Positions 60,691 to 62,133 of a stretch of 64,000 bases of DNA are shown here, one piece after another. Under the pieces are notes generated by a model. It was not told the DNA's origin. It saw only the letters and a program-made list of their open reading frames with translations, and made no database searches. A program made the position numbers and the translations under genes. The stretch lies in the sequence record PQ438391.1; one strand, given 5' to 3'. Each line of letters starts with the position of its first letter. Positions within the stretch are counted from its first letter, which is position 1. The stretch is from Escherichia phage vB_Eco_T-01.

Positions 60691-60984
60691 ATGAAAAAAT
60701 TTGTTTTTGCTGCAATTTTTGCTTTAGCTTCTTGTGCTGCTCAGCCTGCTATGGCAGGTTATGATAAAGATTTGTGTGAATGGTCTATGACTGCGGATCA
60801 GACTGAGGTTGAAACTCAGATTGAAGCAGATATTATGAATATCGTTGAGCGTGATCGCCCTGAAATGAAAGCTGAAGTACAAAAACAGCTTAAGTCTGGT
60901 GGTGTAATGCAGTATAATTATGTTTTGTATTGCGATAAAAACTTTAATAACAAAAATATCATCGCTGAAGTGGTAGGTGAATAA
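60691..60984 (+). CDS. sp: Spackle periplasmic protein (superinfection exclusion / lysozyme inhibitor)
   Basis: 97 aa with signal peptide MKKFVFAAIFALASCAAQPAMA; size and position match T4 sp (61.3). Confidence 0.7.
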   Translation: MKKFVFAAIFALASCAAQPAMAGYDKDLCEWSMTADQTEVETQIEADIMNIVERDRPEMKAEVQKQLKSGGVMQYNYVLYCDKNFNNKNIIAEVVGE

Positions 60985-61610
60985 TGCTCTATCAAATGCA
61001 CAAGTGCAAAGATACATACAAATATAAAGGTGCCCAGTGTTATATCATTAATCGTGAAAACGCGGGTCCAGGTCATTCGCATCAATCACGGTTTGTATTC
61101 GTTAAAAACAATGAAATTATAGCAGTTGCTAATTACATGCTTGTGACTAATGATGTTAATCCGGTGCCTTTTACATATTATAATCTAATGGATTTGGCGT
61201 ACGATTATAATTGGTTTAATCATGACACTTTGGCTCATATCGAAGGCGTAGGATTTGACATCTCTTATTCTAGTTATTCGTTGTGTCCTATGAGCCGAGC
61301 TCATAAAGAGCCTGAATATTTTTCATTTCGTCGGCGTGTAGACTTTAAACGCAGTACAGAGTATGTCGGTGGAATCTTTGTTAAAGATAATCGAATTACT
61401 CGCATTATTTATCCTTTGGGCTGTGGTCAAAAAGATATTGACGTTGATTTAGACTTTACTGAAAACATCATTAATCATATTGCTTCTGTGTATTTTGATA
61501 TTGATCACAAAATTGTAATATGTGGATATGAATTACCATCAGAAAAACAGTCTAAAGTAAATGTTTCTATTGATGACCAAATTTTTAATGCTTTTATGAA
61601 TAAAGGTTAA
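60984..61610 (+). CDS. hypothetical protein (61.2 position)
   Basis: 208 aa; C-terminus SIDDQIFNAFMNKG is shared with the next ORF. Confidence 0.5.
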   Translation: MLYQMHKCKDTYKYKGAQCYIINRENAGPGHSHQSRFVFVKNNEIIAVANYMLVTNDVNPVPFTYYNLMDLAYDYNWFNHDTLAHIEGVGFDISYSSYSLCPMSRAHKEPEYFSFRRRVDFKRSTEYVGGIFVKDNRITRIIYPLGCGQKDIDVDLDFTENIINHIASVYFDIDHKIVICGYELPSEKQSKVNVSIDDQIFNAFMNKG

Positions 61611-61640
61611 TATGTATAGTTCTGAATTTTCATATTTAAA

Positions 61641-61967
61641 ATGGAAAAAATTTCATACGATTTTATAGATGAAAAGGTTTATTACAGCTTCCATGAACCG
61701 TGTTTTAATAGTGAGGTTGGGTTTATTGTAGTAAAAGACAATTTCATTTTAAAAATATATTCAGCATTAAAGGATTTTCATTACGAAAATATTAACCTAA
61801 AATTTAATAAAGAAAACGTTCGTAATTGCGCAGTAACAATTACAGGAAATAAAGGTACATGTGTTATGTTATCTGATGAAATTAATGATTTGCTAAATGA
61901 TGCAGAAAATATTACTGCGCCATCTATTGATGACCAAATTTTTAATGCTTTTATGAATAGAGGTTAA
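61641..61967 (+). CDS. hypothetical protein (61.1 position) sharing a C-terminus with the preceding gene
   Basis: 108 aa; C-terminus SIDDQIFNAFMNRG; flanked by 45-bp direct repeats. Confidence 0.5.
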   Translation: MEKISYDFIDEKVYYSFHEPCFNSEVGFIVVKDNFILKIYSALKDFHYENINLKFNKENVRNCAVTITGNKGTCVMLSDEINDLLNDAENITAPSIDDQIFNAFMNRG

Positions 61968-61968
61968 T

Positions 61969-62133
61969 ATGAAAACATATAAAGAATTTATCAAAGAAGA
62001 TATGGTCGCTGGAGATTCAGGTGGTAATCCTGAAAATATCTCTACTGGAACAACGTCAGGCGCTGTAGTAAATAAAGGTCCTGAACAGATTCCTAAAAAG
62101 AAAAAAGAGGAATCTAAAGAAAAAGAAGAGTAA
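61969..62133 (+). CDS. small protein with internal-protein-like N-terminus (MKTYKEFIKE)
   Basis: Not in the ORF track (54 aa); ATG overlaps the previous stop. Confidence 0.35.
   Translation: MKTYKEFIKEDMVAGDSGGNPENISTGTTSGAVVNKGPEQIPKKKKEESKEKEE

Follow-up and report, generated by a model that had tools for sequence, protein, structure and literature searches.

Tandem AdfA-family genes with a shared 3'-end repeat and three natural genotypes at the adfA locus of T4-like phages

The window analyzed here, the whole 64,000-nucleotide (nt) stretch of Escherichia phage vB_Eco_T-01 (PQ438391.1), contains in its region 60984-62133 a 49-nt direct repeat, the two copies of which are most probably the shared 3' ends of two tandem AdfA-family genes: adfA (T4 gene 61.2, anti-DarT factor A) and a short paralog. 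Recombination between the repeats, together with a separate deletion in the T2 lineage, most probably produced the three genotypes that are found at this locus in T4-like phages. The region is part of a Tequatrovirus (T4-like) genome, and 540 phage records match a query of 3.1 kb around it, the best of them with 97.7% identity. All features are located on the plus strand unless stated otherwise.

The 49-nt repeat and the two genes that end in it

The repeat search of the window gave two copies, at 61566-61614 and 61923-61971, which are identical at 48 of 49 positions and spaced by 357 nt. A preliminary description of the same DNA had noticed 45 nt of it, at 61571..61615 and 61927..61971. The existence of the repeat is confirmed and the second copy is placed correctly (61927-61971, one mismatch), but the first copy lies one base to the left, at 61570-61614 (no mismatches), and the repeat reaches 4 nt (TCTA) further in the 5' direction. 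The 64 kb contain no further match to the 45-mer with three or fewer mismatches, and 100 shuffles yielded none.

Copy 1 (61566..61614, from the repeat search and the tail alignment) holds the final 14 codons of adfA (SIDDQIFNAFMNKG) with their TAA stop and, after it, the start codon ATG of the gene that follows. Copy 2 (61923..61971) is built in the same way from the final 14 codons of the short paralog (SIDDQIFNAFMNRG) and TAA; it also has a GAGG Shine-Dalgarno sequence and the start ATG of gene 61.1. The open reading frames (ORFs) of 208 and 108 amino acids (aa) share the ending SIDDQIFNAFMN(K/R)G, with TAATATG directly after it. Within the codons for Lys/Arg-Gly, AAAGG or AGAGG doubles as the Shine-Dalgarno sequence of the next gene, a weak one in the case of AAAGG in copy 1; the tail ends ...NRG in the other copy. 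Since each repeat carries a stop codon, a Shine-Dalgarno sequence, and the next ATG, a gene placed after any such tail obtains the same ribosome-binding site and start codon, an arrangement suggestive of translational coupling. The common peptide and the stop/ribosome-binding site/ATG junction had already been recognized correctly; the ATG of copy 1 (61612), however, does not open the 108-aa gene but an ORF of 18 codons, the 108-aa frame starting at 61641. The encoded tail, S-I-D-D-Q-I-F-N-A-F-M-N-K/R-G, is invariant in the family, with the peptide DDQIFNAFM unchanged in all members found, including those of RB69, of the Gaprivervirus-type phages, and of two other T4-like lineages. It is predicted to form a helix.

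Within each repeat (61585-61613 and 61942-61970), AATGCTTTT and TAATAT, spaced by 12 nt, look like the elements of a T4 MotA-dependent middle promoter when compared with the consensus of such promoters. The TGCTT core is not kept in Gaprivervirus (TGCCTT) or RB69 (TGCATT), and the resemblance is probably fortuitous.

The 208-aa gene (60984..61610) matches the Pfam family PF23813 over profile positions 1-211 with 452.8 bits (E 1.7e-136) and, by this match, is full-length AdfA, T4 gp61.2. Its placement in the T4 61.2 position and its link to DarTG defense, both suggested earlier, are borne out, as the product of gene 61.2 is the anti-DarT factor AdfA (PMC11257639, PMC9391042). Residue 164 acts as a switch for AdfA binding and neutralizing DarT1, and neutralization of DarT is documented for AdfA(R164H) and for T4 AdfA (PMC11257639). 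H165 of the window protein aligns with R164 of RB69, so that the adfA of the window has the DarT1-neutralizing His allele at this specificity-determining residue. The N-terminal and C-terminal halves of AdfA are related by HHalign with a probability of 35%, which is only suggestive of an internal duplication. Two sharply unlike 5' haplotypes of adfA occur in Tequatrovirus (window 60984-61150, the first ~166 nt), MLYQMHKCKDTYKYKG... here and in T4 vs MIYYMHKNPPFKYGKFPD... in others, and about half of the matching records align to adfA only from nt 167 on; this pattern indicates mosaic recombination within the gene.

The gene between the repeats (61641..61967, 108 aa in the window) belongs to the RB32ORF033c family (phrog_4122). 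It had been called 61.1-like, which is not the case: 61.1 is the 54-aa ORF downstream, and the ORF between the repeats is a short paralog of 61.2/AdfA. Its ortholog in RB18 is annotated as 'some similarity to gp61.2; RB32ORF033c' (phrog_4122, E 6.7e-73), and the window protein and RB32ORF033c of RB18/RB32 represent the same gene (protein clusters 94-97% identical). The literature search found no paper that mentions RB32ORF033c. The hidden Markov model of the AdfA family (PF23813, gathering score 27 bits) gives scores above the gathering score for the 108-aa protein of the window (31.3 bits), for that of T2 (32.2 bits), and for the 118-aa form of RB18 (34.1 bits). The match is confined to profile positions 130-211 (113-211 for the form of 118 aa) and does not extend over the full-length architecture of ~210 aa. 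The two window proteins are 36% identical over 87 residues in BLASTP (E 4e-8), and HHalign relates the C-terminal half of AdfA to the short family with a probability of 98.5% (E 2.5e-15). In the alignment made without the tail, the similarity rests on a VG-I-VKDN-I strand motif. For the short protein as well as for the C-terminal half of AdfA, AlphaFold2 (AF2) models predict five strands followed by one helix (which bears H165 in AdfA) and, at the end, by a second helix that the tail makes up; a search of the PDB gave no convincing match to either model. Probably the short gene and the C-terminal half of AdfA are paralogs that have diverged very strongly. The residue aligned to His/Arg164 of AdfA is Asn, with an Arg one position earlier, i.e. 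it is not the His allele, in a part where the alignment is uncertain. The family as a whole is tiny: a wide search of 1.84 billion representatives gave just five genuine clusters, and a pattern scan of IMG/VR gave 14 loci only.

Tail codons, natural genotypes, and proposed recombination between the repeats

The two tails of the window agree not only in their peptide. All 12 degenerate tail codons that can be compared are identical between the copies, when 5.6 mismatches are expected from the codon usage of the window (P ~4e-4), and outside the tail the same codon is used at 8 of the 22 identical degenerate residues of AdfA and the short protein. Orthologous tails, on the other hand, drift at synonymous sites, as seen in the comparisons of the window with Sf21, RB69, and VR25. 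In the three lineages sampled, the two copies within one genome tend to carry the same lineage-specific synonymous state: the second Asp codon is GAC in both copies of the window and RB18 and GAT in both of Sf21, the Ala codon is GCT in Tequatrovirus and GCC in VR25 and DK-13, and the Arg codon is AGA vs CGA in Gaprivervirus. These observations point to homogenization of the tail copies at the DNA level, the signature of concerted evolution. Were the repeat a mere by-product of strong purifying selection, acting on a C-terminal peptide that is essential and on the ribosome-binding site/stop/start junction, with neither conversion nor any role in gene gain and loss, the invariance of DDQIFNAFM in every family member found would be expected, the strongly biased codon usage (TTT 0.72, AAT 0.73, ATT 0.76) would help to keep the copies alike, and the 3-5 nt by which the Gaprivervirus copies differ would be no surprise. 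Invariance of the peptide explains the amino-acid identity of the tails, but not their codon identity; the agreement of 12 codons out of 12 is hardly reached from codon usage alone, orthologous tails do diverge synonymously, and the deletion alleles described below end precisely at the repeat in three separate comparisons. Selection as the sole cause of the repeat is rather improbable.

Three states of the locus are found among the sequenced Tequatrovirus genomes, each in about one third of them. In the T4 state adfA stands directly before 61.1 and one repeat is present (167 records with the T4-type junction); in the two-gene state, represented by the window, RB18, and Sf21, both genes and two repeats are present (~157 records); in the T2 state adfA is lost and only the short gene is present (141 records with the T2-type junction). 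The T4-type and T2-type junctions were counted with junction-specific queries, the two-gene number is the difference between the 298 records with the short gene and the 141 of T2 type, and all counts are approximate, being based on BLAST coverage classes. The T2-type junction joins sp to TAGAGGTTAGTATG, which is what is left of repeat copy 1 (its last 14 nt), with the short paralog coming next (L003, the T2 locus, 1960-2030). The phages AdolfPortmann, TadeuszReichstein, and KarlGJung of the BASEL collection are of the T2 type, like T2 itself. Of 17 T-even phages, only 13 were reported to encode adfA, and T2 was described as a phage that 'naturally lacks an adfA homolog' (PMC11257639); the genotypes of T2 and the BASEL phages agree with this figure. 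By the Pfam score (32.2 bits in T2), the 'adfA-less' phages keep a short AdfA-family gene.

Sites that are empty and hold exactly one copy of the repeat are seen in T4, in Aplg8, and in L020, an IMG/VR contig of Gaprivervirus-like origin. Over ~5.5 kb, the identity between Aplg8 and the window is 95-100% in most stretches of 200 nt, and a single gap of 357 bp, equal to one repeat unit, sets them apart. L020 is near-identical to VR25, with exactly the 361 bp from between the repeats missing, an independent, precise loss. Such events recur in separate lineages, Tequatrovirus and the Gaprivervirus type, with different outcomes of the crossover (T4 has kept the tail with NRG, L020 the one with KRD). 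A comparison with relatives had been proposed in the preliminary description, and they indeed carry one or two copies of the repeat; those with a single copy (T4, Aplg8, T2) lack one of the genes and do not share the gene content of the window.

The arrangement extends beyond Tequatrovirus. In the Gaprivervirus-type genomes VR25, DK-13, P8, and M719, two genes come after sp, first one of 145 aa and then one of 119 aa that is orthologous to the short gene (44-50% identity), both ending in the tail peptide, with repeats of 45-49 nt which are 88-94% identical in the four genomes. Two further T4-like lineages have the short-form gene alone after sp. As the layout with two genes and two repeats also exists in Gaprivervirus, the two-gene state is old, and the single-copy state of T4 is most simply read as a loss, which is more likely than a gain in the window. 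The 145-aa gene (phrog_8539) occupies the slot after sp at L005 (VR25) 1559-1996, with related loci L008, L009, L010, L015-L017, L019, and L020. After removal of the tail, its body shows no support as a homolog of AdfA (P 0.11); only the DDQIFNAFM tail is shared with AdfA and the short paralog, and one C-terminal peptide is found on at least three very different protein bodies.

Acquisition of the 357-bp unit by a recent insertion in this lineage, with the single-copy state of T4 being ancestral, would agree with the single AdfA-family gene of T4 and RB69 and with the sharp boundaries of the unit. It is at odds with the long-plus-short layout and the same flanking repeats in Gaprivervirus, and with the divergence of the short-gene orthologs (synonymous divergence, dS, of ~0.5 within Tequatrovirus and ~47% aa identity between the genera). 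Moreover, the 14-nt remnant of copy 1 at the T2-type junction fits an origin from the two-gene state, and no nuclease, transposase, or terminal inverted repeats are present. We consider a recent gain quite unlikely. Two particular forms of it were rejected: a recent tandem duplication, by the ~36% identity of the bodies over 87 residues and the common codon at just 8 of 22 conserved residues outside the tail, and the insertion of a mobile element or homing endonuclease, as AdfA is the only Pfam match, with no nuclease or transposase in the unit and no inverted repeats at its ends. The ~355 bp between the repeats had been described as an inserted or duplicated module; that they form a discrete unit holds (357 bp, lost precisely in relatives), whereas its recent insertion or duplication does not, considering the divergent bodies and the Gaprivervirus layout. 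Taken as a whole, that earlier interpretation is partly supported.

In the mechanism proposed for the shared 3' ends, the near-identical tails provide 49 bp of homology around the 357-bp unit. Recombination of the T4 type between the repeats, by unequal crossover or gene conversion, would delete the short gene and keep the tails alike, a separate deletion would have taken adfA from the T2 lineage, and the repeat-mediated loss and the T2 deletion together would yield the three-state polymorphism. Conserved 'linker' sequences at gene boundaries are said to have been part of the modular theory of phage evolution formulated by Botstein in 1980. As with such linkers, a short conserved boundary sequence gives homology for exchanging or removing the neighboring module; unlike them, the conserved sequence itself codes for a peptide here, and selection for a role in recombination is not implied. 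Another parallel is given by the T4 dmd-tifA segments, which the T4 recombination machinery amplifies and deletes at homologies of 6-10 bp (Srikant et al., eLife 2022; PMC9391042). They lie in the same island, and likewise a segment bounded by direct repeats is gained or lost with one repeat copy left; those events took place at microhomologies of 6-10 bp in the laboratory, while the repeat described here is a conserved natural gene end of 49 bp and the events are reconstructed (PMC9391042).

Several observations weigh against this picture. Recombination at the 49-bp repeat is deduced from natural variants, not from experiment, and homogenization is not uniform, as the Gaprivervirus tails differ at 3-5 positions. 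In respect to the kinship of the two genes, the Pfam score of the short ORF comes mostly from the tail (tail-only matches reach 23-26 bits), the HHalign similarity of the bodies (AdfA C-terminal half vs short family) is weak when the last 16 residues are removed (probability 30%, P 5.5e-4), and the AF2 models, built from shallow alignments, have only moderate confidence (predicted local distance difference test, pLDDT, of 73 and 71). The copy of the short gene in the window is frameshifted at its 5' end. Finally, T2, which has the short gene only, is sensitive to DarTG1 after deletion of adfN, so the short protein gives no protection from that DarTG1 at native levels.

A possible role of the short protein in counter-defense

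In the experiments referred to, T2 without adfN was sensitive to DarTG1 with a four-log drop, and deletion of adfA from T4 was likewise without a phenotype against that DarTG1 system (PMC11257639). The short ORF is similar to AdfA (T4 gp61.2, PF23813) in its C-terminal profile match, the invariant tail, and the slot after sp. It differs by the absence of the N-terminal ~110 residues and by Asn in place of His/Arg164, and the T2 data argue against its activity on the DarT1 studied. From its family membership, we infer that the short protein may be a toxin-binding counter-defense factor like AdfA, with a different target specificity; if it is an anti-toxin factor, its target would be some other DarT variant. 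Other phage countermeasures to DarT are AdfN (gp30.3, a NADAR glycohydrolase) and AdfB of ICP1, and T-even phages stack several such layers. AdfN and AdfB are unrelated in sequence to the AdfA family, and AdfN acts enzymatically, removing ADP-ribose from DNA.

One could also regard the short ORF as a non-functional gene in decay, left over from a partial duplication of adfA. This view draws on its frameshifted start in the window, on its absence in about one third of the relatives, and on the lack of protection of T2 from DarTG1. On the other side, pairwise ratios of nonsynonymous to synonymous substitution rates (dN/dS) of the orthologs are 0.06-0.29, the gene starts at the junction ATG and is intact with 118 aa in most of ~300 records, and 141 T2-type records, like two other T4-like lineages, have kept no AdfA-family gene but this one. 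By these substitution ratios, the short gene is a real gene under purifying selection, and its decay is unlikely.

A more specific model is possible but tentative: the short gene would be a stand-alone counter-defense gene directed against another DarT variant or toxin, the tail helix a common docking or structural element, and the 49-bp tail and junction a cassette boundary. If so, the shared tail would sit on 'specificity bodies' that evolve fast, namely those of AdfA, of the short form, and of the 145-aa form of Gaprivervirus; T-even phages would add, drop, and swap such bodies by homologous recombination when co-infecting a cell.

Few phage inhibitors of DarTG defense have been characterized, AdfA among them, and a second, short gene of the AdfA family is present in ~300 sequenced T4-like phages. 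The homogenized 49-bp repeat linking both genes would account for the three natural genotypes, and the locus can serve as a natural example, ordinary but instructive, of short conserved gene ends driving the turnover of counter-defense genes. All components were known or annotated before. The novelty is modest and lies in the three-state polymorphism, the homogenized tail, and the short family member of the 'adfA-less' phages, and the current picture of the field remains unchanged.

One-base deletions and the surrounding genes

The frameshift in the short gene of the window results from a one-base deletion in the A run at 61638..61641, which has four A residues here and five in RB18, T2, and Sf21 (ATTTAAAAATGG in these relatives vs ATTTAAAATGG in the window, by alignment). 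The listed relatives are all one base longer over this segment (312/313 nt for a query of 311/312 nt), and in IMG/VR no exact match to the A4 allele was found. Owing to this deletion, the junction ATG at 61612 opens only an ORF of 18 codons (MYSSEFSYLKWKKFHTIL followed by a stop; 61612..61668), the orphaned original start of the short paralog, where relatives read MYSSEFSYLKMEKIS... in one frame. The 108-aa ORF begins at the internal ATG at 61641, which has no recognizable ribosome-binding site, and it is 10 codons shorter than the form of the relatives; the length of 108 aa, given earlier as that of the gene, is thus a consequence of a frameshift particular to this sequence. The short protein of the window may be poorly expressed or inactive as a result.

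A second one-base deletion with respect to Aplg8 and RB18 is observed after 63313 (window 63309-63313; GTTTCTTATT -> GTTTTTATT), and it splits a 66-aa small ORF similar to RB32ORF030w/'Dam.1' (minus strand, 63161-63361) located between genes 61 and 56. With two frameshifts in less than 2 kb, the accuracy of the sequence at the level of single bases is doubtful. The deletion at 61638-61641 could be a real inactivation or a homopolymer sequencing error, the latter being possible for both deletions. The same two deletions, seen against all compared relatives, hint at imperfect base-calling and could be taken to mean that the duplication itself is an assembly artefact; the chance of this is practically nil, because ~157 independent phage records share the two-copy layout, and the relatives refute it. 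The interval between gene 61 and gene 56 (window 63165-63430) has no dam methyltransferase gene and holds only the small minus-strand ORF; dam is equally absent there in RB18 and Aplg8, while T4 carries it at this place (L002, the T4 locus, 1287-2435).

The gene order at the locus, from the ORF list and the annotation of relatives, is 41, dmd, 61.4, sp, 61.2, the short ORF, 61.1, and 61. The upstream neighbor sp (spackle, 60691..60984; Pfam T4_Spackle, E 4.8e-45; synteny with T4 and RB18) overlaps adfA, its stop codon sharing bases with the adfA start codon. Gene 61.1 (54 aa, 61969..62133; phrog_1823, E 7e-34, and the annotation of T4 and RB18) starts its translation at the junction inside repeat copy 2, and is followed by gene 61, the DNA primase (62136..63164, from the ORF list and the annotation of relatives). 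In the window the AdfA-family slot lies directly 3' of sp and 5' of 61.1/61, and the same order is kept in T4, RB18, Sf21, T2, RB69, Gaprivervirus, and two metagenomic lineages. The locus has been proposed as a T-even 'anti-toxin island', consisting of dmd, tifA/61.4, sp, and adfA.

No promoter of its own was found for the 357-bp unit, the number of sigma-70-like sites being at background (18 vs 15.6 +/- 3.6), and no terminator was found between adfA and 61; the unit depends on the junction that the repeat provides. The top sigma-70-like site of the region is located between gene 41 and dmd, at 60131-60159 (TTTACA, a 17-nt spacer, and TATAGT, with an upstream TG), and is a plausible early promoter for the entire gene string from dmd to 61.

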